Shown piece after piece: positions 1-45,700 of a stretch of 64,000 nucleotides of DNA. The DNA lies in contig OZ024742.1 in NCBI GenBank assembly GCA_964016885.1, positions 369,086,001 to 369,150,000 on the forward strand, read 5' to 3'. The notes below the pieces were generated by a model. That model ran no database searches, had not been told where the DNA came from, and saw nothing but the letters and a program-made list of their open reading frames with translations. Every line of letters begins with the position of its first letter. Positions within the stretch are counted from its first letter, which is position 1. This DNA comes from Eledone cirrhosa. Its lineage: Eukaryota. A program made the position numbers and the translations under genes.

Positions 1-19
1 ATACAAGCATATCTATCTA

Positions 20-57
<38 letters not shown>

Positions 58-228
58 AGCATATCTATCTATCTATCTATATATATATATACAAGCATAT
101 CTATCTATCTATATATATATATATATACAAGCATATCTATCTCTATATATATATACAAGCATATCTATCTATCTATCTATATACAAGCATAACAGTAATG
201 TAATGGTGACGTAACAGTAATGTAATGG

Positions 229-1783
229 TGACGTAACAGTAATGGTGTCGACGGCCTCGGAAATCGGGGCGATCGGCACCTTACTGGAGGAGTACGAAAG
301 GTTTACAGGGGCTAAGCTGAACCGGGACAACTCGATCGGTCTGCAACTCGGCACGTGGAGGGGCAGATCGATGCCCTCTGATGGTGTCATCGGGCGCTGG
401 ATGGAGGGCCCGGTGAAGTTGCTCGGGGTCTGGTTCGGACCAGACCTCCAGGTGGAGAAGAACTGGGGTGAGGTAACGAACAGGGTGTTTGCACTGACCC
501 AGAAGTGGGCCGAGTGCAAACTGTCCCTGAAAGGTCGGGCGGAGGTGGCGAACACTTATATAGCGTCCGTCATCTACTACCGCCTGACCGATGTGCCTTG
601 CCCAAGGGAAACGCTCTTTGGAAGAAGCGGGCTCCTATGGTGAGGAGATCCATCTGCTGTCAACACCCTTCGAAAGGAGGGCTGGGGATGCCGTGGCTAA
701 TGATACGTAAACACGCATTAAGGCTACGGCACCTCCAGGTATTCCTCACCGGTCAACCGTTTGTGAGGCGAGCCTTTCCCAGACTCGTCTCACTCACCGA
801 GCTGCAATCCTGGGTCAAGCAAAGACCGAGAAAACTGGGCACCTGGCACACCGAGTGTGCCCAGGCGCTCACGGCTCTCTGGCAGGCGGATCCGGCTGTC
901 AGTGGAGAATCTACCTCGTCATTCTATAGAGGGATGTTAAGCAGCAGGTGCGACGACGCCCTCGGAGAAGCCCTAGGCATGGAGGAAGACGAACTGGACA
1001 ACCTGTTCGGTAGGACATTCAGCCCGGGACCTATGAATAACTTCCAGAGGTCACTGGCCTGGCAGTGCTACCGAGAGGCTCTGCCCGTTCGAGAAAGGCT
1101 CTACAGACACGGGCGCCCGGGTAGGGACCCCTCGAAAGAGATCTGTCCCAGATGCGTGTGCGACGAGGAAACCGTTGCACATGCATTGGTACACTGCTCG
1201 GGCATTGCCGATCTGTGGGGCTATGTCGAACAACTGCTGTCAAGGGTGGGACCGATCCGGTTGACCACCGAGTCTATTGTAACGATCAAGCCGCCTTCCC
1301 TCTTCAAAAACGAAGGAGAGGCGGTGTTTCTGTGCGTAATAGCCATGGCGAAAGAGGTTGTATGGTGGACGCGTCTGAAAGGACTGAGGTCAGACACTTT
1401 TCTCTCTGGCCAACAACTGGTCCGTTTCTTCCGATATCATTTCGGAAGAAGGATCAGGGTGGAGAGATAGGTGCTGCACCCCAGCCGTTTTTATGAAAGA
1501 TGGGTGAAAGTGGCGAGAATGGCCCGTGTGAATGGGCCTTCACTCTACATCAGACTATAGGTGAGGAAGATGAAAGACCAAGGGAGCACCCCCTCTCTGT
1601 GCTCCTGAGGCGCCTCCTCCCTATTGAGGATTTTGTTATAAAATTTATTTTGTTATATTTTATTTTATTTTTATACTTTAATATCTTGTTATTGCCTCCT
1701 CCATATTGAGGACGCCTTTGCATGTAAACTCCCCCCTTTGTACTTGTCCCACTTTTGATGCCCCGGTGGCAAATAAAAAGAAA
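229..1783 (+). mobile_element. 5'-truncated Tx1/L1-clade LINE (ORF2 C-terminal part plus 3' UTR), disrupted
   Basis: ORFs 242-643 and 505-1470 give YERFTGAKLNRDNS, VKLLGVWFG, KGGLGMPW and the CCHC motif CPRCVCDEETVAHALVHC. It is closely similar to the 42703-43965 ORF, with a frameshifting deletion near 610 and an early TAG at 1468. The 3' end reads GTGGCAAATAAAAAGAAA. Confidence 0.92.
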
Positions 1784-1860
1784 GTTATCTATATACAAGC
1801 ATATCTATCTATCTACATACAAGCATATCTATCTATATATATATATATACAAGCATATCT

Positions 1861-3914
1861 CATCATCATCATCATCAACGTTTAACGTCCGTGTTCCACG
1901 CTTGCATGGGTTTGGACGGGGGTAGTCCCACTTGAGGCAAGAGTGATTGTCTTGCTCGCATAGGACTATCTGGCAGGTTTTCTACAGTTGGATGCCCTTC
2001 CTAACACCAACCACATTTACAGGGTGGGTCTGGGAGGTTTTTACCGTGTTGCCTACACGGCCACATTACAGCGTGGACTGTGTGTTTTTTTGTCGTGACA
2101 CCTACACGATCTCATTTGTTTCGGCCTGGATTGCGCGGCACCAACATAACTTTACATAGAACGGGGTGGTGTGGGGGTGGTGGTGGTGGGACGGGGTGTA
2201 TTTTGTTAGAGATGCCTACTGGCTGTAGTAGGTTTTACTATGTATTTAGGTAAGGCGGGTCTTCTCTGTTACTGAGTACCGCCAAAGGTCTCGGTCCAGT
2301 GACATTGTCTTGGTGAGGTGTAGGTGTGTGAGGTCGGAGTTTCTCAGCTCGTCCCAGGTTTTTCTAGGTCTGCCTATTCCGTGGCTACCGTCTATCTTTA
2401 TTGCCCTGCACTTTGTTATACAGCTATCGACTTTCATGCGCATCACGTGTCCATACCAACGTAGGCTTCTCTCGAGTAAACAACATCTGATCCCTCTTAT
2501 TTCTAATTTTTTCCTTAGTTCGTTTATGCTTTGCCGTTCACGTATATTACTATTACACATCCAGCAGAGCATGCAAGCTTCATTCCTCTCCAGTCTGCGT
2601 ATATCCTCTGCACACAATGCCCAGGTCTCACTGCCATGCAACATTGCTGTTCGTATGCAGGCATCGTACAACCTGCCTTTCATTTTTAGGGAGAACCCTT
2701 TAGCAGCTAATAGTGGTATAAGCTCTCTGAACGTTTTCCAACCAGTTCTGACTCTAGCTACTGTACTTTCAGAGCACCCTCCCCCACTGCTGATTTTATC
2801 GCCCAGGTAACGGAAGCTGTCCACTATTTCTATAGAACCCTCTGCGCAATTGAAAGAGCTAGTATTTTGTGGGCACTTGCTGCTACTTATTGCACCAGAG
2901 CACCGGCCACATGTAAAATCTATGTTCTTAGTTAGCTTACCTGTGATCCTACTACATCTTTTATGCACCCATACTTTGCATTTAGGACATAAAATGGAGT
3001 TTCTACCTACGCCTTTCCTACACACCGAGCACGACCATTTCCCGGAAGGGACCGCCGCCTTATTTTCTTTCCTACAAACTAGAACTTTAGTCTTAGCCAG
3101 GTTAATTTTAAGTCCTTTTGATTCTAGGCCGTGCTTCCATGTTTGGAATTTCTTCTCTAGCTCGGCCATTGATTCTGCTATGAGTGTCAGGTCGTCTGCG
3201 TATAGGAGTTCCCATGGGCAGCCGGTCTTGAACTCCTCTGTTATAGCCTGAAGGGCAATAATAAATAGTAGGGGGCTGAGAACAGAGCCCTGATGGACGC
3301 CAACTTTTACGCTAAACTCTTCACTATATTCGTTGTTAATTCTAACCTTGCTGACTGTTTCTTTATACATGGCTTGTATAGCCCTCACAAGCCATTCGTC
3401 AACGCCTAGTTTTCTAAGAGCCCACCAGATAATGGAGCGGGGGACTCTGTCGAAGGCTTTCTCCAAGTCGACAAAAGCTAAGTAGAGGGATTTATCTTTA
3501 GCTAGGTACTTTTCCTGTAGTTGTCGTACAATGAAAAGAGCGTCTGTGGTACTTTTGCCTGACACAAACCCGAACTGCATTTCATCTAGGTCAATTCTCT
3601 CTCTGATTAGTTGCGTTATTACTTTTTCCGTGACCTTCATGACCTGGTCGATTAACTTAATGCCTCTATAGTTACTCCTATCTAGGGCGTCTCCTTTACC
3701 CTTATAACAGTTAACGATGATGCTGCTATGCCAGTCCTTCGGAACAACCCCATTCTGTACGACTTGGTTAACTATGCGGGTGACCATGGTGTGTCCCACC
3801 GTGCCAGATGCCTTCAGCATCTCAGCAACTATTTCCGAAGGCCCAGCCGCCTTACCCGTCTTCATATCCTTGATTGCCTTACTTATTATACTCCCCTCGA
3901 CTAACACTGCTGGT
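1861..3914 (-). mobile_element. 5'-truncated RTE-clade LINE with PHD-finger insertion in RT, copy 1
   Basis: ORF 2246-~3912 has GKAAGP, NYRGIKL, QFGF, FVDLEKAFDRV, GVHQGSVLSPLLF, LYADD, FRYLG, WYGHVMR and GRPRKTW. A (GAT)n tail lies at 1861-1876. Confidence 0.95.
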
Positions 3915-3979
3915 CTATATATATATATATATATATACAAGCATATCTATCTCTATATATATATATACAAGCATATCTA

Positions 3980-4011
<32 letters not shown>

Positions 4012-4156
4012 AGCATATCTATCTATATATATATATATACAAGCATATCTATCTATATATATATATACATATACAAGCATATCTATCTATATATATTTCT
4101 TTTCTGAATTTGTTTAGCAAGATTCTTTATCTGAAAACGTGTGTTGAAACCGATAT

Positions 4157-4566
4157 TGTTATACTTTGGGAGGGTCATGTTGCCAATAAGAAACACACGC
4201 ACCAGTTGCTTTCACTTCAATTTAGTATAATAAATTTACAAATTTAGGAATTTATAAATTTCCGGTTGGTTGGTTGGTTCCACAACCAGATGATTGATAG
4301 AACACACACACAAAAACAAGATGGCGTAGGACAGAACACAGGAGAGGCACAAAAACAAAGAAAAGAATCCCCAGTCACTGATGAGGTCGCTGAATGTGTG
4401 ACAAAAGAACTTTGACAATATATAAACAATCATCTGGTTGTGGAACCAACCAACCAACTGGAAATTTATAAATTCCTAAATTTATAAATTTATTATAATA
4501 AATTAAAGTGAAAGCAACTGGTGCGTGTGTTTCTTATTGGCAACATGACCCTCCCAAAGTATAACA
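4157..4566. mobile_element. Non-autonomous TIR element, ~140-bp inverted arms, TGT...ACA termini, flanked by ATAT
   Basis: 4157-~4296 (TGTTATACTTTGGGAGGGTCATGTTGCC...CACAACCAGATGATTG) is the near-perfect reverse complement of ~4427-4566. Confidence 0.8.
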
Positions 4567-4569
4567 ATA

Positions 4570-4609
<40 letters not shown>

Positions 4610-4633
4610 CATATCTATCTATATATATATATA

Positions 4634-4880
4634 TGCTCTCTTCAACATCACACCAGGACACGTCAAAACAGAAACTGACCACACAAAATTCAAGAAGTCT
4701 TTGGACAAATTCCTCCAAGTAATCCCGGACAAACCACCCACACCCGGATATGTCTCCGCAAACAGTAATTCTCTTCTCGAATGAGCCATGGTGCCCAAAT
4801 CCTGAATTGAAAGACTTCGCCAGGTGGTGCTATTAAGTTAGACATGGCCTGGGCCAATACTGGCAAAAACATTTCAAAGT
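4634..4880 (+). mobile_element. 3' fragment of a CR1-like LINE
   Basis: Translates LFNITPGHVKTETDHTKFKKSLDKFLQVIPDKPPTPGYVSANSNSLLE, matching the invertebrate CR1 ORF2 C-terminal pattern FK..LDKFL..IPD.P...SNSL, followed by a short 3' UTR. Confidence 0.75.
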
Positions 4881-5071
4881 TATATATATATATATATATA
4901 TATACAAGCATATCTATATATATATATACAAGCATATCTATCTATATATATATATATATATATACAAGCATATCTATATATATATATATATACAAGCATA
5001 TATATCTCTATATATATATACAAGCATATCTATCTCTATATATATACAAGCATATCTATATATATATATAT

Positions 5072-7057
5072 ATCATCATCATCATCATCATCATCTTCGT
5101 TTAACGTCCATTAGAATGGGTTGGACTGGAGTTGTCCCACTTGAGGCAAGGTTGGTCGGCTGACCATGTCTCGCTCATATAGGACTATCTGGCAGGTTTT
5201 CTACGGCTGGATGCCCTTCCTAACACCAACCACATTTACAGTGTGGAACTGGGAACTTTTTACCGTGTTACCTACATGGCCACATTACAGTGTGGACTGT
5301 GTTTTTTTTCTCGTGACACCTACACGATCTCGATCTCATCTCATTATCTCTTATTTGGACTGGATGTTGTGGTACCAACTTTACAGAGAGACGGTGGTGT
5401 TGGTGAGAGGATAGGGTAGGGGTAGTGGATTGGGGTGTATATTTGGTTAAGAGGTGCCTACTGACTGTAGGTTTCGGTTTGTACATAAGCAAGGCGGGTC
5501 TTCTGTATTACTGCGTAGTGCCAAAGATCTCGGTTCAGTGACATTGTCTTAGAGAGGTGCAAGTGTGTAAGGTCGGAATTTATCAGATCGTCCCAGGTCT
5601 ACCTACTCCGTAACTACCATCAATTTTGATCGCCCTGCACTTTTTTATACAGCTGTCGTCTTTCATGCGCATCACGTGGCCATACCAACGTAGTCTTCTC
5701 TCAAGTAAACAGCATCTGATCCCTCTTATTCCTAATTTCTCACATAGTTCATTTATGCCTTGCTGTTCACGTATATTACTATTACACATCCAACGGAGCA
5801 TGCATGCTTCGTTCCTTTCCTGTCTACACAGGTCCTCTGCCCACAAAGCCCATGTCTCACTGACATGTAGCATTGCTGTTCGTATACAAGCATCATACAA
5901 TCTGCCTTTCATTTTTAGAGAGAAACCTTTTGTGGCCAACAGCGGTATAAGCTCTCTGAACTTTTTCCATCCCGTTCTGACTCTGGCTACTGTACTTTCA
6001 GAACACCCTCGACCACTGCTGATTTCATCACCCAGGTAACGGAAACTGTCTACTATTTCTATAGAACCATCTGGGCAATAGAAGGAGCTAGTATCCTGTA
6101 GACACCTGCTACTTATTGCACCTGAGCATCGGCCACATATAAAGTCTACGTTCTTAGATAGTTTACCTGTGATCCCACTACATCTTTTATGTACCCATAC
6201 TTTGCATTTGGGACGTAAAATTGAATTTCTGCCTACTCCTTTCCTACACACTGAGCATGGCCATTTCCCAGATGGGACCGGTGCCTTCTTTTCCTTTCTA
6301 CAAACTAGAACTTTAGTCTTAGACAAGTTAACTTTAAGGCCTTTTGATTCTAGGCCATGCTTCCATGTTTGGAATTTCTTTTCTAGTTCAGCCATTGATT
6401 CAGCTATGAGCGTTAGATCATCTGCGTATAGGAGTTCCCATGAGCAGCCGGTCTTGAACTCCTCTGTTATAGCCTGAAGGGCAATAATAAATAGGAGGGG
6501 GCTAAGGACAGACCCTTGGTGAACACCAACTTTTACACTAAATTCTTCACAATATTCCTTGTTAATTCTAATCTTACTGACAGTTTCCACAAGCCATTCA
6601 TCTACACCTAGTTTTCTAAGAGCCCACAAGATAATGGAGCGAGGGACTCTGTCAAAGGCTTTTTCCAGGTCTACAAAAGCTAAGTAGAGGGGTTTACTTT
6701 TAGCTAGGTACTTCTCTTGTAGTTGTCGTACAAGGAAAAGAGCGTCTGTTGTACTTTTACCTGACACAAACCCAAACTGCATTTCATCTAGATCAATTCG
6801 CTCTCTGATTAGTTGCGTTATAACTCTTTCTGTGACCTTCATGACCTGGTCAACTAACTTAATGCCTCTATAGTTTCCTCTATCTAGAACATCTCCTTTA
6901 CCCTTGTAGCAGTTAATGATGATGCTGCTACGCCAGTCTTTTGGTATGACCCCATACTGTATTACTTATCATTACGGACACACTTCTCCCCGACAATATC
7001 ACGGTTTTCCTTGACACATTGTCTAGCAATCCTGAACACCTCGCGTTTTTGGTCCTC
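5072..7057 (-). mobile_element. RTE-clade LINE with PHD insertion, copy 2 (truncated, internally deleted)
   Basis: ORF 5583-6842 carries the RT motifs and PHD, with a (GAT)n tail at 5072-5095. 6970-7057 reads EDQKREVFRIARQCVKENRDIVGEKCVRND on the minus strand, an upstream RTE segment joined across a deletion. Confidence 0.93.
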
Positions 7058-7198
7058 ATATATACAGGCATATCTATCTCTCTATATATACAAGCATATC
7101 TATCTCTCTCTATATATATATACAAGCATATCTATCTCTCTCTATATATATACAAGCATATCTATCTCTCTCTCTATATATATATATATACAAGCATA

Positions 7199-7230
<32 letters not shown>

Positions 7231-7281
7231 CAAGCATATCTATCTCTCTCTCTATATACAAGCATATCTATCTCTCTCTAT

Positions 7282-7460
7282 ATGGTGGCTGCCAACTCGT
7301 TTTCGAGTACGGCCACTACTTTATATCCATGTAGGAGAACCCCTACCGATGCGCTGAACGAATGTGACTTTTTAGTCCAGCCAGCGACTTGAAAACTCTG
7401 GTACAAACACTACAGTTGTGACAATTATTGACACATAGTGCAGGGCCCATGGTACCATGT
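7282..7460 (-). mobile_element. 3' end of a second RTE-like LINE family ending in a C2H2 finger
   Basis: Minus strand translates NCSVCTRVFKSLAGLKSHIRSAHR* (C-x2-C-x12-H-x4-H), followed by a ~60-nt 3' UTR that runs into the TA repeat. Confidence 0.65.
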
Positions 7461-7489
7461 GATGACAAGTGCAGAGAGATCTCCAGATA

Positions 7490-7905
7490 TAAAGCAATGC
7501 CTGTGCTGTGAAGCTTTTATAGTGAGCAAAGGCACTGCACAAAGCCAGTCCCACTCTCTTAACCAAGATGATATTTACCAAAAAGAAGAACAGGTCAACA
7601 TCATTGGATACCATCAGGGTTGCAGGTGTTATATCAGAGTTTTCCTTCTCCTAGAATTCTGCCTTGACAAAGGCTAAGGGGTCATCTCTCCCGGTGATTT
7701 TGGATGGCTTAATTTTGGATTGATTTGGATGTCTTAAGAGCTCCCTTGCCCTTTGACAGGTTTTGTTTTTAGTCCTGCAGGATGTCCAAAGTCACCCTCC
7801 TCACCAAGAAACCTTGGTGAGGTTGCCAGTTTAGTCGCCAACGACCCGACCATGAGACAGGTTGTACTGGGATACATGTTACCAGTAGCACCAACTGGTG
7901 ACCTG
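7490..7905 (-). repeat. Dispersed repeat resembling an RTE 5'-UTR region, hairpin-rich
   Basis: Minus strand has AGCCTTTGTCAAGGCAGAATTCTAGGAGAAGGAAAACTCTGA. A diverged second copy at ~59360-59550 shares CCCACTCTCT...CCAAAAAGAAGAACAGGTCAACAT. Confidence 0.5.
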
Positions 7906-7982
7906 ATATATATATACAAGCATATCTATCTATATCTATATATAGCGTGGAATATGGACGTTAAATGATGATTAAACGATGA

Positions 7983-8017
<35 letters not shown>

Positions 8018-8273
8018 AGCATATCTATCTCTATATATATACAAGCATATCTATCTCTATATATATACATGCATATCTATCTATATATATATACAAGCAT
8101 ATCTATCTATATATATATACAAGCATATCTATCTATATATATATACAAGCATATCTATCTATATATATATACAAGCATATCTATCTATATATATATACAA
8201 GCATATCTATCTATATATATATATATATACAAGCATATCTTTATATATATATATATATACACACAAGCATATC

Positions 8274-8313
<40 letters not shown>

Positions 8314-8445
8314 CACAAGCATATCTATCTCTCTATATATATATACAAGCATATCTATCTCTCTCTATATATATATACAAGCATATCTATCTATCTATAT
8401 ATATATATACAAACATATCTATCTATCTATATATATATACAAGCA

Positions 8446-8643
8446 CTTTTTTCGGGGGTGTGTGCGACCCCCCAAGGCGCCTCCTCTCTATTGAGGATTT
8501 TGTTAAAAATTTTATTTTTTGTTATATCTTATTTTATTTTTATATTTTGTTATTGCCTCCTCCTTATTGAGGACGCCTTTTTGTGTAAACTCCCCCCTTT
8601 GTACTTGTCCCACTTTTGATGCCCTAGTGGCAAATAAAAGAAA
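8446..8643 (+). mobile_element. Tx1-clade LINE 3' UTR-only insertion
   Basis: Near-identical to 1608-1783 and homologous to the 3' UTR of the minus-strand copies. Confidence 0.88.
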
Positions 8644-23479: not shown

Positions 23480-24310
23480 TTATCCGGGATGGAAGTGGTA
23501 TCAAAACTAGCAGGTATAGGATCAATTAACTGGAACTTGCTGATGATGTTGTAATAATTAACTTGTCTAAAGATGATTTCTGACAAGCAGTGGATAGGTT
23601 TGCTGTAGAATGCTGCCAAGTAGGGATGAAAATCAGTGTTGCAAAGACTAAGACATTCCTCTTGTCAAAAGCTCCTGTGGTGTGCACCTTACATGTGAGT
23701 GGGGTAACACTGAAGCAGGTGGAGAAGTTCAAGAATCTCAAAGCTGTTTTCATGACTGATAAAATGCAGGAGACTGAATTAAATATAAGAATTGCTGGAG
23801 TTGGTGCAATAATGTTCCAACTTCAACAGTCATCAGAAGCAGGGTTGGTGTAAAAGACAAATTCACTCTCTCCACACATGACCTTGCCTTTGATTATGAA
23901 TCTTGGGTAATAATAGAAAGAAAATGATTGCAAATACAAGCAACCAAAATAGCGTTCCTTCAAAGGGTCTCTGGAGTAAAGTAACTTGACAGGCTTATCA
24001 AGGAGAGGTTCCAAGTAGAACCTCTACTTCTCCACATTGAGAGACCACAACCCTGCTACTACAGTCAGCTTGTTAGAATATCTAAGGAAAGAATTGCTGG
24101 ATAGATTTTATAGGCAAAATGAACCGGCAAGAGACCAAGAGGCAGGCTACACGCAAGATGGTTGGATAACAGATCAGCTGATCTCTCTTAGGGACCCAGC
24201 AAAATCATTTGGAGACACTGCTTCTGATAAAACTCTCTGGAAAGCAAAAGAAAAGTGAAAAAGGAGAAGAGCAGGGATGGAGGAAAAAGAGGGCAGATGA
24301 TAATGATGAG
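23480..24310 (+). mobile_element. Old degraded RTE-clade LINE of a different family, without the PHD insertion
   Basis: DRFAVECCQVGMKISVAKTKTFLLSKAPVVCTLHVSGVTLKQVEKFKNL...ELNIRIA. A related remnant lies at ~35715-36140. Confidence 0.7.
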
Positions 24311-36705: not shown

Positions 36706-38854
36706 AAGCTTGGAAGTGTCACTACGAAAGGCTACTAAATGAGGAGAATAAATGGGAGGATAGTCTCCCCCAGATCAATCCAATAGAGGGACCAGCAGTG
36801 TTAGTTGAAGGTAGTAAAATAAGTAAGGCAATCAAAGATATGAAGACGGGTAAGGCGGCTGGGCCTTTGGAAATAGTTGCTGAGATGCTGAAAGCCTCTG
36901 GAACGGTGGGACACACCATGGTCACCCGGATAGTAAACCAAGTCATACGGAATGGGGTTGTTCCGAAGGACTGGCGTAGCAGCATCATCATTAACTGTTA
37001 CAAGGGTAAAGGAGACGCCCTAGATAGGAGTAACTATAGAGGCATTAAATTAATCGACCAGGTCATGAAGGTCACGGAAAAAGTAATAGTGCAACTAATC
37101 AGAGAGAGAATTGATCTAGATGAAATGCAGTTCGGGTTTGTGTCAGGCAAAAGTACCACAGACGCTCTTTTCATTGTACGACAACTACAGAAGTACCTAG
37201 CTAAAAGTAAACCCCTATACTTAGCCTTTGTCGACTTGGAGAAAGCGTTCGACAGAGTCCCCCGTTCCATTATCTGGTGGGCTCTTAGAAAACTAGGTGT
37301 TGATGAATGGCTTGTGAGAGCTATACAAGCCATGTATAAAGAAACAGTCAGCAAGGTTAGAATTAACAACGAATATAGTGAAGAGTTTAGCGTAAAAGTT
37401 GGTGTTCATCAGGGCTCTGTTCTTAGCCCCCTACTATTTATTATTGCCCTACAGGCTATAACAGTGGAGTTCAAGACCGGCTGCCCATGGGAACTCCTAT
37501 ACGCAGATGATCTAACGCTCATAGCTGAATCAATGGCCGAGCTAGAGAAGAAATTCCAAACATGGAAGCACGGCCTAGAATCAAAAGGCCTTAAAATTAA
37601 CCTGGCTAAGACTAAAGTTCTAGTTTGTAGGAAAGAAAATAAGGCGCCGGTCCCTTCCGGGAAATGGCCATGCTCAGTGTGTAGGAAAGGAGTAGGTAGA
37701 AACTCAATTTTATGTCCCAAATGCAAAGTATGGGTGCATAAAAGATGTAGTGGGATCACAGGTAAGCTAACTAAGAACATAGATTTTACATGTGGCCGGT
37801 GCTCTGGTGCAATAAGTAGCAGCAAGTGCCCACAAAATACTAGCTCTTTCAATTGCGCAGAGGGTTCTATAGAAATAGTGGACAGCTTCCGTTACCTGGG
37901 TGACAAAATCAGCAGTGGGGGAGGGTGCTCTGAAAGTACAGTAGCTAGAGTCAGAACAGGATGGAAACAGTTCAGAGAGCTTATACCACTATTAGCCGCT
38001 AAAGGGTTCTCCCTAAAAATGAAAGGCAGGTTGTATGATGCCTGCATACGAACAGCAATGTTGCATGGCAGTGAGACCTGGGCATTGTGTGCAGAGGATA
38101 TACGCAGACTAGAGAGGAACGAAGCTTGCATGCTCCGCGGGATGTGTAATAGTAATATACGCGAACGGCAAAGTATAAACGAACTAAGGGAAAAATTAGA
38201 AATAAGAGGGATCAGATGTTGTTTAGTCGAGAGAAGGCTACGTTGGTATGGTCACGTGATGCGCATGAAAGACGACAGCTGTATAAAAAAGTGCAGGGCA
38301 ATAAAGATAGACGGTAGCCACAGAGTAGGCAGACCCAGAAAAACCTGCGACGACGTGATAAATTCCGACCTCACACACTTACACCTCTCCAAGACAATGT
38401 CACTGGACCGAGATCTTTGGTGGTACTCAGTAATAGAGAAGACCCGCCTTACCTAAATACAAAGTAAAACCTACTACAGTCAGTAGGCATCTCTAACAAA
38501 ACACCCCCCCCCCCCCCCCCGTCCCACCACCCCCACCCCATCCACACCGCCCCTTTCAATGTAAAGTTATGTTGGTGCCACAACATCCAGGCCGAAACAA
38601 ATGAGGTCGTGTAGGTGTCACGACAAAAAAACACACAGTCCACGCTGTAATGTGGCCGTGTAGGCAACACGGTAAAAACCTCCCAGTCCCACACTGTAAA
38701 TGTGGTTGGTGTTAGGAAGGGCATCCAGCTGTAGAAAACCCGCCAGACAGTCCTATGCGAGCAAGACAACCACTCTTGCCTCAAGTGGGAAAACTCCTGT
38801 CCAAACCCATGCAAACGTGGAACATGGACGTTAAACGGTGATGATGATGATGAT
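36706..38854 (+). mobile_element. 5'-truncated RTE-clade LINE with PHD insertion, copy 3
   Basis: ORF 36798-38456 is near-identical to copy 1. (GAT)n tail at 38840-38854. Confidence 0.95.
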
Positions 38855-39286
38855 AGAGTAATGTAAATGTTATGTGAGATATTATGTAAGCTAAAGCCTT
38901 TACTGTGAAAATACAATAGTATATATAGAGTAATGTAAATGTTATGTGAGATATTATGTAAGCTAAAGCCTTTACTGTGAAAATACAATAGTATATATAG
39001 AGTAATGTAAATGTTATGTGAGATATTATGTAAGCTAAAGCCTTTACTGTGAAAATACAATAGTATATATAGAGTAATGTAAATGTTATGTGAGATATTA
39101 TGTAAGCTAAAGCCTTTACTGTGAAAATACAATAGTATATATAGAGTAATGTAAATGTTATGTGAGATATTATGTAAGCTAAAGCCTTTACTGTGAAAAT
39201 ACAATAGTATATATAGAGTAATGTAAATGTTATGTGAGATATTATATAAGCTAAAGCCTTTACTGTGAAAATACAATAGTATATAT
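38855..39286. repeat. 72-bp tandem repeat, 6 copies, derived from the MITE subterminus
   Basis: Unit AGAGTAATGTAAATGTTATGTGAGATATTATGTAAGCTAAAGCCTTTACTGTGAAAATACAATAGTATATAT. Confidence 0.95.
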
Positions 39287-39910
39287 AGAGTAATGTAAAT
39301 ATTAAAGGGTTAAGGCAATCATAGTGTCAATGTCTTATATAGTTATTAGGATGTTCCTGTTTCTACATTTCTTCTTCCCAGCTTTTATTAACTCCTGCTA
39401 TATTATTATTGTTATTATCAACTCTGTAAAGTTATAAATGGGTGTAAATATTTTAATTTGTTTTTATGTGTAATTGCCCGGGAAACATATACACCAGGTC
39501 CGACACAAAAGAACGAAACTCCTACTGTCACTGTCTCTCCTGCTCTCCCCATCTCTCTCTATTATGAGCAAATGGGGGCCCCATGCACTGTCTTCTCCAG
39601 CAGACAGAATAGAGAAGGTGAGGGAGACATGTTGGAAGAGACATTCCATCTCGCAGGGCTCACTCCTGCAGGTAACCAGTTGATGGTGGTGAGGAGGGAG
39701 GTGGCCCTAAGGCCAAGGACACCAGAGGTCTCCACTGCCACAGGCTAATCCGCAAACCTGTTGGAGAGCGACTGATTTTTGAAGAATTAGTTATGTCTGT
39801 ATTCCTAGTCCAGAAGATAATTTAAGAAGCCAGTGGTTAATTAAGAATGTAGGCTGTGCTGGGACAGCAAGCAGCAAACAGCCACAGGAAACAAGCACCA
39901 CCAATCTCTG

Positions 39911-40812
39911 GGAGGGCTCTGTAGAAACAGTAGACAGCTTCTGCTACCTAGGTGACCGAATTAGCAGCAGAGGTACAATAACTAGGGTAAGAACGGGATG
40001 GAAGAAGTTCAGGAAACTACTGCCACAGCTAGCTGCAAAAGGCTTCTCCCTCAGAATGAAAGGCAGACTGTATGATACGTGTATCCGAACAGCAATGTTA
40101 CATGGTAGTGAGACCTGGGCGCTGAAGGTGGAAGACTTACGTAGATTAGAAAGAAACGAAGCCTGCATGCTCCGATGGATGTGTAACAGTAATATACGCG
40201 AACGGCAAAGCATAAATGAATTGAGGGAGAGACTGAGCATAAGAGGAATCAAATGCTGTGTGCAGGAGAGGCGGTTGTGTTGGTATGGACATGTGATGCG
40301 TATGAAGGATGACAGCTGCATAAAAAGGTGCAGAGCACTAGAAGTTGATGGAAACCGTGGAGTGAGGAGACCCAAGAAGACCTGGGATGAGGTGATAAAA
40401 GCCGACCTTACCCAATTACACCTCTCAAAGGCGATGACACACGACCGTGACCTCTGGCGTCACACAGTAATACAGAGTACCCAACCTCCCACGGGTACAA
40501 GCCGAAGCTGAAGCATATAGACAATATGCACCCACACTCTCCCACTGCAAAGTGATCGTGGAGGTGCCATGGCAAAAAAGCACCCAGCCCACACTGTAAA
40601 GTGGACGTGTAGGCGCTACGGAAAAAAAGCACCCAGGACTCACTGTAAATGAGGTTGGTGTTAGGAAGGGCATCCAGCTGTAGAAATCAAGCCCAAATCA
40701 GTTCCCGTATGAGCTAGAGAGGGTCAGCCGACCAGACACTGCCCACAACAGGACAACCCGTCTAACCCATGCTAGCATGGAAGAACGGATGTAAAACGAT
40801 GATGATGATGAT
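39911..40812 (+). mobile_element. RTE 3' fragment, divergent subfamily
   Basis: EGSVETVDSFCYLG, ORF 40056-40511, a different 3' UTR containing ~48-bp repeats, and a (GAT)n tail. Confidence 0.9.
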
Positions 40813-42702: not shown

Positions 42703-45700
42703 CTACAGGCAGAGGTAGAGAGAAGGCCCATTCACACGGGCCATTCTCGCAACTTTCACCCACCTTTCATAAAACTGGCTGGAGTGGAGCACCTCTCTCT
42801 CCATCCTGATCCTTCTCCCGAAATGGTATCGGAAGAAAAGGACCAGTTGTTGGCCGAAAAGAAAGGTGTCCGACCTCAGCCCTTTCAGACGCGTCCACCA
42901 TACAACCTCTTTCGCCATGGCTATTACACAGAGGAAGACCGCTTCTCCTTCATGTTTGAAGGGGGGAGGCGGCTTGATCATTACAATGGACTTGGTGGTC
43001 AACCTAATTAGTCCCATCCGTGACAGCAGTTGTTCGACATAGCCCCACAGATCGGCAACGCCCGGGCAGTGGACCAATGCGTGCGCGACCGTTTCCTCGT
43101 CGCGCACGCATCTGGGACAGATCTTTTTCGAGGGGTCCCTACCCGGGCGCCCGTGTCTGTAGAGCTTATCTTGAACGGGCAGAGCCCCTCGGTAGCACTG
43201 CCAAGCCAAGGAATTCTGGAAGTTGTCCATAAGTCCCGGGCGGAAAGTCCTACCGAATAGACTGGCCAGTTCGTCCTCCTCCATGCCTAGGGTTTCTCCG
43301 AGGGCGTTGTCGCACCTGCTAACCACCAGCCCTCTATAGAATGACGAGGTGGAGTCTCCATCGATAGCCTGGTCCACCTGCCAGAGAGCCGTGAGCGCCT
43401 GGGCACACTCGGTGTACCAGTCACCCAGTTTTCTTGGTCTTTGCTTCACCCAGGACTGCAGCTCGATGAGCGAGACGAGCCTCGGGAAGGCTCGCCTCAC
43501 AAATGGGGCCCACACCGGTTGACCGGTGAGGAATACCTGGAGGTGCCTTAGCCTCAATGCGTGATTACGCATTTTTAGCCACGGCATCCACAGCCCTCCT
43601 TTCAAAGGGTGTTGACAGCAGATGGATCTCCTCACCAGAGGAGACCTCTTCATCCAAAGGAAATAAAAGAGGGCGCACTCCATTTTGGCGAGGATCTCAC
43701 CCGGGCAAGGCACGACAGTCAAGCGGTAATAGATGACGAACGCTATGAAAGCGTTCGCCACCTCCGCCCGACCTTTCAGGGATAGTTTGCACTCGGCCCA
43801 CTTCTGGGTCAGTGCAAACACCCTATTCGTCACCTCACCCCAGTTTTTCTCCACCTGGAGGTCCGGTCCGAACAAGACCCCAAGCAACTTCACCGGGCCC
43901 TCCGTCCACCGTCCGACGATACCGTCGGACGACATCGCTTTGCCCCTCCACTCGCCGAGTTTCAAAGCGACTGACTTGTCCCGGTTCAGCTTAGCCCGTC
44001 AACCTTTCGTACTCCTCCAGTAAGGTGCCGATTGCCTCGATTTCCGCGGTGGTCGACACCATTACAGTTACGTCATCGGCATAGGCCGACACCGCTTTGC
44101 GCAATCCCGGTTCCAAAGGGATGCCCTGCAACAACTCCAACTTCCGCAGTAGTGACTCGAGAGCCAATACATACAGAAGGGAGGAGAAAGGGCACCCCTG
44201 TCGGATGGAGCGGGTGATTTCGAACGGCTCCGAGAGGTAGCCGTTCACCTTGACTCTAGAGCAGATGCGACTGCTGTGCATGGCAGTGATCCAGCCCCTG
44301 AAAACGGGTCCGAACCCAGCCGCCACTAGCACCGCATCCAGGTAACCATGTTCCACCCTATCGAACGCTTTAGACTGATCTAAATTTATCAGGGCCCCAC
44401 CAAAGCCTGGTTCATTCCCAACCCTCTCTATCATGTATCGCATGAGGTGGAGGTTGTCGTGGATGGACCTGGACGGGATAGCGCATGTCTGCGCATCTCC
44501 CACCAGGCCCCCCACGACAAGCGCCAACCTCTTCGCTAACACCTTGGCCAAAATCTTTAACTCTGCTTTTAGCAGAGTTATGGGCCTAAAATTACTAATG
44601 TCATCCCCCTTGTTCTCGTCCTTCCTCACTAGCGAGACTACGCCCTTGGTCACAGAACAGGGAATTCTCCCGTTCTGTTGCCAGTTGCAGTAGACCGCCT
44701 CGAGGAGATCGGGGAACAAATCCGGCATATTAATATATAGTTCGTAGGGCAGACCATCGAGCCCTGGAGGTTTGTGTTTGCCGCATAGGCTCAGCACGTC
44801 CCCTATTTCAGCAGCTGAGATCGGCCCGTCGCAAGTCCTCGCCTCCTTGTCCGAAAGACGCGGCAGGCCGTCGAGGTATGGACCGAAATCCACATCTCCA
44901 ACCGGCCCCCCGCCCCTCCCGAACAATCGGGCAAAATGCCTTTGAAAGGCCTCGCACATTTGCTTAGGTTCAAGGATCACCCGTCCATCCTGGTCTCGCA
45001 AAGACCAGATAGTGGATCTAATCCCACTTTTCGCTTCTGTCACGCGGGCCCAGCTAACAGCTTTGGTCCCCTCGTTTCCCAGAGCACGTATTTTGCTTCG
45101 GACAACACAGCCTTCGTGTTCCGCGTCGAAGAACTGGCTCAAGGCCGTTCTCGACGCTTGCACTCTGGCCACGTTGCCGCTTCTCATTGCCTCTTCAACA
45201 TTAACTACCAATTCCCTTTCCTTCCTATTTCTATCTGAGGCTAACTCCTTACTAACTCCTATTGAAACTACTCTAATCTCTCTTTTTAGAGAGCCCCACC
45301 ACCTGCTGTTGACGATGGCGCCCGTCAACCGCTCCTTAACTAAGGTTCTAATCCGGTCCCTGTAAGCTCTACTTGCCGGTAAGGACAAGTTGAGCTTCCA
45401 GTAACCGGGTCCCTGCCTATGCGTTCTATCAAGGTGGACTACGCAGGTCACTAACTTGTGGTCTGAATAGCCCACCATGAGCATTTCTGGACAACTTAAA
45501 AAGTCCCTATCCTTAATTCTAACTAAGAACCCATCTAGGTACGATCTAGATTGACCACTGTTATTTGACCAAGTCCAGGTTGGCACAGTCGGAAAATCTA
45601 GTTGATATCTATCGGCCAGGTCAAATCGGCCAATTAACGCCTTGAGGCTGTTACACCCCTCTCTATCGGGACATGCCTCTACATAGTCCCAACGTGCATC

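Follow-up and report, generated by a model that had tools for sequence, protein, structure and literature searches.

PHD-bearing RTE copies in the window

The 64,000-nucleotide stretch of DNA analysed here (the window) carries copies of an RTE-type LINE, hereafter PHD-RTE, in whose reverse transcriptase (RT) a PHD finger is encoded. Copy 1, including its 3' UTR and (GAT)n tail, occupies 1861..3915 on the reverse strand and is 96% identical to a full-length copy (L021); it is 5'-truncated and retains an open RT-PHD-thumb frame at 2249..3916 (-) (P0002; open reading frame and model). Read along this frame, the YADD catalytic motif (3191..3202 [-], invariant in alignment A1) is followed by the whole insert of linker, PHD finger and linker, placed in the loop that follows RT motif 6 (2870..3070 [-], boundaries approximate, from alignment with PHD-less RTEs), and by FRYLG, which is RT motif 7 (2801..2815 [-]). 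Within the insert, the finger core from Cys1 to Cys8 spans 2900..3031 (-) (residues 291-340 of the model, pLDDT 89-95). Copy 2 (5075..6967 [-], 82% identical to L021) is older and has its finger at 6126..6257 (-); copy 3 (36707..38853 [+], 92%) has its finger at 37671..37802 (+). A fourth copy, of an older subfamily, lies at 39700..40812 (+), where a broken finger region (~39700-40480) and a 3' end can be recognized.

In the three window copies the finger follows the pattern C-x2-C-x10-C-x2-C-x4-H-x2-C-x14-C-x2-C over 44 codons, with a Trp two residues before the His. The sequence-only reading had reported three such in-frame C4HC3 fingers between KTKV and FRYLG, one of them with a Cys-to-Arg change, and all three were found where it had placed them, the Arg being at the third Cys of copy 2. 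Pfam PHD (PF00628) scored 33.1, 28.0 and 33.8 bits in copies 1, 2 and 3, respectively, against a cut-off of 24, and so bore out the PHD assignment in every copy. A C1 or RING identity was rejected, as Pfam C1_1 and RING remained below their own cut-offs and below the PHD score. A decayed PHD-less RTE remnant at 23590..23853 (+) had been offered as an internal control; its short spacer between motifs 6 and 7 is indeed there, but with 8 of 16 residues matching around motif 6 it is a distant and decayed RTE and therefore a weak control, for which PHD-less RT relatives are the better substitute.

Twelve long genomic copies each showed a single ORF of ~1084 aa that comprises endonuclease, RT, PHD and thumb, followed by a (GAT)n tail. 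In one full-length natural ORF (P0003), Pfam recognized the endonuclease, RVT_1 and PHD, the last at 28.1 bits. The ORF stops shortly after the thumb, and a C-terminal CCHC knuckle is absent. By this architecture, the element is a single-ORF LINE of the RTE clade; its relatives in the tree are all unnamed, and the label draws in addition on motifs that we take to be characteristic of the clade. A first look at the 3.0-Gb genome, which to judge by its nearest named proteins is probably that of an octopus, returned 72,625 candidates, a figure that is not a copy number, and the 150 candidates scored were 99 to 100% identical over 151 aa, many of them within frames of >1000 aa. PHD-RTE is very abundant in this genome and includes intact, near-identical copies. 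The finger is retained in at least three subfamilies, with protein identities of about 98%, 77% and 67%. Some copies reach ~300 bases past a (CA)n(TA)n run in the 5' UTR (L022, L023, L027, L028, L029 and L031), and others start at this run.

Other repeats share the locus. A local satellite, variable in its (TA)n, lies at window positions 1-8600 and has taken up at least four LINE insertions from two families. LINEs which we take to be L1/Tx1-like lie at window positions 250-1790 and 42706-43998 (-), and also at L054:7670-10000 (-); in one such subfamily 150 of 150 scored copies were identical over 150 aa and many had an open frame of 1156 aa, so that it must have been active very recently. A further young RTE family, which lacks the PHD and has several C2H2-like fingers at its C terminus (L098:8835-9665 [-], L085 and L042), resembles the published RTE-2_OV and served as one of the controls below. 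Tandem arrays of one unit were often seen on both sides of copies (unit of ~72 bp at copy 3), as at window positions 38853-39326 and just 5' of 36707, and in L017, L018 and L032; this suggests target-site amplification or insertion into minisatellites.

Fold, position and conservation of the finger

The size of the insert was derived from the distance between YADD and YLG in RT relatives, which were obtained, with and without a finger, when 1.84 billion representatives were searched with the whole RT. This spacing was 66 to 77 aa in relatives without and 126 to 139 aa in relatives with a finger, a few broken or truncated models excepted. The existence of two separate classes argues that the finger is not a chance insert, and the difference puts the net insert, as aligned, at ~63 to 65 aa, more than the 44 aa of the sequence-only reading. 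A structural model had been suggested there as a check. In a model of the 556-aa RT (mean pLDDT, 91), which matched R2 and L1 RTs, the finger was predicted with a pLDDT of 89 to 95; a finger-only model of the 61-aa domain reached a mean pLDDT of 76, and its top matches were all PHD structures, with Pygo (Z, 5.8; rmsd, 2.5; 53 residues aligned) ahead of TAF3 (Z, 5.2). The PHF23 finger was also among the nearest structures. The Foldseek E value for the PHD matches was 0.03, and these scores are modest, as is usual for a domain of 61 aa. The insert is thus predicted to adopt a true PHD fold.

The insert sits between the strand of motif 6 and the hairpin that precedes motif 7. The whole model matched R2 (8gh6; Z, 22.9; rmsd, 3.6; 449 residues aligned). 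By sequence alignment, R2Bm residues 666 and 672 fall right before the finger. In R2Bm, His673 and Lys675 of loop 6a recognize upstream target DNA, deletion of the loop blocks nicking, and the loop is described there as unique to R2 (PMC10499050). The corresponding loop of vertebrate R2 is described as wedging into the upstream target DNA (PMC11601368), and in human L1 the thumb, wrist and CTD are reported to hold the target-DNA flank that R2 contacts with loop 6a (PMC7617806). By analogy with loop 6a, the finger would face the target DNA on its non-primer flank. The sequence alignment places both insertions at the same point of the RT; however, loop 6a is a short sequence-reading loop of a site-specific element, whereas the PHD insert is a folded domain with two zincs and belongs to a dispersed element with an APE endonuclease.

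Conservation of the finger was assessed in two alignments. All eight zinc ligands were present in 119 of 119 rows of one; in the other, of 121 rows, seven ligands were present in 121/121 and the eighth in 120/121, one row ending early. The searches underlying both had favoured finger-bearing proteins. A search with the region gave 187 relatives, and most of the best 120 of these 187 were ~50% identical. Between subfamilies, dN/dS of the PHD finger was ~0.07 to 0.09 (0.047/0.635 and 0.121/1.43), compared with ~0.03 to 0.04 in the RT core and ~0.25 in the linker after the finger. The finger is under purifying selection. Two checks named in the sequence-only reading, dN/dS across subfamilies (about 0.08) and conservation of the ligands between them, thus both point to constraint.

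A quick tree was built from 52 rows with the insert columns dropped; it took in 38 of the 95 PHD rows left after de-duplication and 14 of the 18 rows lacking a finger, the spacer not being measurable in the remaining four. The 38 PHD rows lay on one side of a branch and the 14 PHD-less rows on the other (SH-aLRT, 92), which requires one label change; the nearest PHD-less sisters are on the branch of P0148 and P0150. The simplest reading is that the insert had a single origin and marks a wide RTE lineage. Named hosts of finger-bearing relatives were Octopus bimaculoides, O. vulgaris and the catfish Neoarius graeffei; relatives labelled bacterial are probably host contamination. The Atlas contains clusters that combine RVT_1 and PHD, with few recorded taxa. 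The RT-PHD part of PHD-RTE is also included in two public gene models (P0004 and P0015), for LETM1-like in O. bimaculoides and for slc22a21 in catfish, which have probably taken in intronic copies. Variants of the finger with three or four residues between the His and the next Cys were seen in P0126, P0131, P0136, P0160 and P0089.

The sequence-only reading had called the finger one of histone-reader type. Positions of the cage were mapped by sequence, with a choice of cage-forming residues that is in part our assumption. The position of the invariant Trp held Trp in 150 of 153 finger sequences, and an aromatic residue stood two positions before Cys1 in 139/153. The cage position before Cys3 was aromatic or Met in 1/153 and mostly Ser or Ala, and an acidic residue followed Cys3 in 8/153 and Cys4 in 13/153, so that an acidic Arg2 pocket was not found. 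An acidic cluster before Cys1 was present in 8/153, Lys or Arg dominating three positions before Cys1, which is not the pattern of readers of unmodified H3K4, and the net charge was positive in all 153 (+1 to +11; median, +6). Of the histone-reader label, the Trp and the N-terminal aromatic residue thus stood, and the cage Met, the acidic pockets and a matching charge did not; the finger appears to present half a pocket on a basic domain. Readers of H3K4me3 are described as having an invariant Trp, a cage that comprises two to four aromatic residues and often an acidic Arg2 pocket, and readers of unmodified H3K4 as having an acidic cluster before Cys1 (PMC3241642); both kinds are reported to use a mainly negative site (PMC10124903). 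H3K4-reading PHDs such as Pygo, TAF3, ING and BHC80 share the C4HC3 ligands, the fold and the invariant Trp with the PHD-RTE finger, but the latter is basic, has half a cage and is devoid of acidic pockets. On these residues canonical H3K4 reading is doubtful, and it keeps some room because an acidic Arg2 pocket is lacking in Pygo and RAG2, which nonetheless bind H3K4me (PMC3241642).

Insertion sites and the nature of the CpG-poor DNA

The sequence-only reading had also proposed that the finger could steer integration and that insertion sites be compared with those of PHD-less elements. Flanks of 20 young PHD-RTE copies, taken at a fixed step through the candidate list, were compared with those of young copies, 40 in all, from three LINEs of this genome that lack the PHD, and with 100 random 10-kb windows of repeat-masked host DNA from contigs C1 and C2. 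CpG observed/expected (o/e) values of the random windows had two peaks, near 0.2 and near 0.75; values of <0.35 were called low, and flanks were kept when they held at least 1000 unmasked bases. Low-CpG flanks were found for 11 of 15 young PHD-RTE copies and for 15 of 74 random windows (P = 1.3e-4; P = 1.2e-3 against C1 windows alone), and for 4 of 24 copies of the PHD-less LINEs pooled (2/11, 1/8 and 1/5; P = 6.7e-4 against PHD-RTE). With the dropped windows scored as not low, the fractions became 11/20, 15/100 and 4/40 for PHD-RTE, random windows and PHD-less LINEs, respectively. Three of five further long PHD-RTE copies were also in low-CpG DNA. Compared singly, the C2H2-bearing RTE differed from PHD-RTE with P = 0.08 in a rank test (1000-base filter; 0.04 and 0.02 at other filters) and had 4/11 low flanks at a threshold of 0.5, and for Tx1 alone P was 0.11. 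CpG-rich flanks were found for 3 of the 15 young PHD-RTE copies, and about a quarter of young copies lay outside low-CpG DNA. The random windows themselves held PHD-lineage remnants in 8/15 low and 6/59 other windows (P = 7e-4), compared with 4/15 and 17/59, respectively, for other LINEs. In the window analysed here, the part between 8 and 40 kb is CpG-poor; the first 8 kb are nearly devoid of unique DNA.

A bias of PHD-RTE insertions toward CpG-poor host DNA is thus supported as a pattern, in small samples, and it is present in PHD-RTE and not in the control families. Because the control families differ from PHD-RTE in the endonuclease and everywhere else as well, the comparison does not tie the bias to the finger itself: of the proposal that the finger steers integration, the site bias was seen, and a causal role of the finger is what we infer from it. 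A preference for (TA)n targets was rejected as a signature of the finger, since most PHD-RTE ends adjoin (TA)n and so do those of the three PHD-less families; (TA)n content, moreover, rises with CpG o/e (rho, +0.25), the wrong direction for explaining the bias.

DEAD-box genes gave an indication of what the CpG-poor DNA is. Flanks of DEAD-box genes had CpG o/e of <0.35 at 10 of 21 loci (P = 0.022, the contrast being with random windows only). A filter chosen afterwards took out the long single-frame matches, of which there were five, and also two loci that had <700 unique bases; of the 23 DEAD-family loci left, some of which share a gene, 22 were at <0.5, compared with 16 of 77 random windows. 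Introns of multi-exon DEAD-box genes were CpG-poor. Six of 30 DEAD loci hold PHD-lineage remnants (from about four insertions), and one holds another LINE. In octopus, methylation is reported on the bodies of constitutively expressed genes and as scant in promoters and transposons (PMC9476566). Together with the CpG-poor DEAD-box loci, this makes it likely that the CpG-poor DNA is methylated gene body. The bias points toward CpG-poor, gene-body-like DNA and not toward CpG-rich, promoter-like DNA. Within the copies themselves, direct signs of methylation were weak: CpG transitions were in no excess in young (4/759 versus 4/345) or old copies, and in mid-age copies the excess was small (160/258 versus 246/347 CpGs kept; P = 0.023), at sites that are not independent.

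Proposed mechanism, rival explanations and known systems

The explanation that we favour, at even odds, is that the finger tethers the integration enzyme to a feature of gene-body chromatin near the target DNA. The finger would hold the integration complex on the chromatin of methylated bodies of constitutively expressed genes, and CpG-poor DNA would, as a result, accumulate young copies. Binding of the H3 N terminus in the canonical mode is probably not what the finger does; more likely ligands are nucleosomal or methylated DNA, which might be contacted through the basic surface, a gene-body methyl-lysine, which might enter the half-pocket of Trp and N-terminal aromatic residue, and a gene-body protein, which might bind the conserved G-V-G-x-N-S-I surface. 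The fuller reading, that an old and widespread animal RTE lineage carries a chromatin-sensing PHD in the RT loop facing target DNA, which would steer insertion into the methylated bodies of housekeeping genes by non-canonical reading of a gene-body feature, and so amounts to epigenetic targeting encoded by the element itself, is put forward tentatively, as somewhat less probable than its opposite.

A simpler role would be that of a non-specific clamp on target DNA or template RNA, standing in for the absent wrist and C-terminal zinc finger, with the bias being due to some other part of the element or to the timing of its expression. The positive charge of every finger sequence (median, +6), the position at the DNA-contact loop of R2, the end of the ORF soon after the thumb and the C-terminal C2H2-like fingers that another RTE family of this genome has instead all fit such a clamp. 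However, PHD-less RTEs function without a finger and are abundant in the same genome, a plain basic clamp needs neither the exposed-type Trp (150/153) nor the N-terminal aromatic residue (139/153) that have been kept, and why PHD-RTE alone shows the bias is left unexplained; we consider the clamp rather unlikely. That the finger is instead a canonical reader of the H3 N-terminal tail, as H3K4me3 or as unmodified H3K4, seems very improbable to us, even though its nearest structures are the fingers of Pygo, TAF3 and PHF23, its invariant Trp stands two residues before the His as in H3K4me3 readers (PMC3241642) and Pygo and RAG2 bind H3K4me with the acidic Arg2 pocket absent (PMC3241642). The domain is basic, the acidic cluster and the acid after Cys3 occur in 8/153 sequences each and a cage Met or aromatic residue in 1/153, and CpG-rich flanks at 3/15 young copies indicate no promoter-type bias; unmodified H3K4, being widespread, would presumably not produce a gene-body bias by itself.

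The bias might, finally, have arisen after insertion, through longer retention in gene bodies or faster loss elsewhere, the finger serving stability or protection from host defence. All copies examined were fixed or assembled, and old subfamilies are equally enriched, as retention would have it. Selection, however, is expected to remove intronic insertions rather than favour them, the sampled copies are very young (0.1 to 0.25% private changes, those in low-CpG flanks having fewer), and PHD-less families of like age (0.06 to 0.5%) lack the enrichment, which makes retention improbable.

Should tethering by the finger prove true, it would show by what means a dispersed LINE selects its niche in chromatin and would help to explain why the introns of housekeeping genes have grown in such genomes. 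It would also mark the loop that follows RT motif 6 as a place where a folded targeting domain is naturally tolerated, which is of interest for retrotransposon-based gene-insertion tools. In PHD-RTE the finger belongs to the enzyme, intact copies are abundant and young PHD-less LINEs serve as controls, so that the question is directly testable.

Among RTE-clade LINEs, RTE-2_OV of octopus shares with PHD-RTE a single ORF of ~1100 aa with APE and RT, a short-repeat tail and 5' truncation; it is described with a C2H2 finger, its main text naming no PHD domain, whereas PHD-RTE has a PHD inside the RT palm (PMC9115989). An active RTE of O. bimaculoides (RTE8BF6ALB220127), which may or may not belong to the PHD-RTE family, had 74 of 211 calls in introns (PMC9115989). 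PHD fingers of LINEs have been under suspicion of directing integration for a long time. PHDs of CR1 and L2 LINEs have the same top structural relatives as the PHD-RTE finger (Pygo 2vpb and 3zpv) but lie in ORF1 or at the N terminus of the ORF, whereas the PHD-RTE finger lies inside the catalytic domain and in a different clade; a targeting role was proposed for them in 2014 by authors who knew of no functional study and who called the structure of ORF2 highly constrained (PMC4120745). Neither a PHD within the RT of an RTE, which Repbase or Dfam may nevertheless list as annotation, nor a gene-body insertion preference of such a LINE was described in the literature we searched; in many database proteins RVT_1 and PHD have already been annotated together by automatic means. 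In chromatin-targeted LTR elements and retroviruses a reader module biases integration, as do the chromodomains of chromovirus integrases and LEDGF with HIV integrase, the latter toward active gene bodies. These systems are integrase based, and the HIV reader is a host protein, whereas the reader of PHD-RTE would be built into the RT itself.
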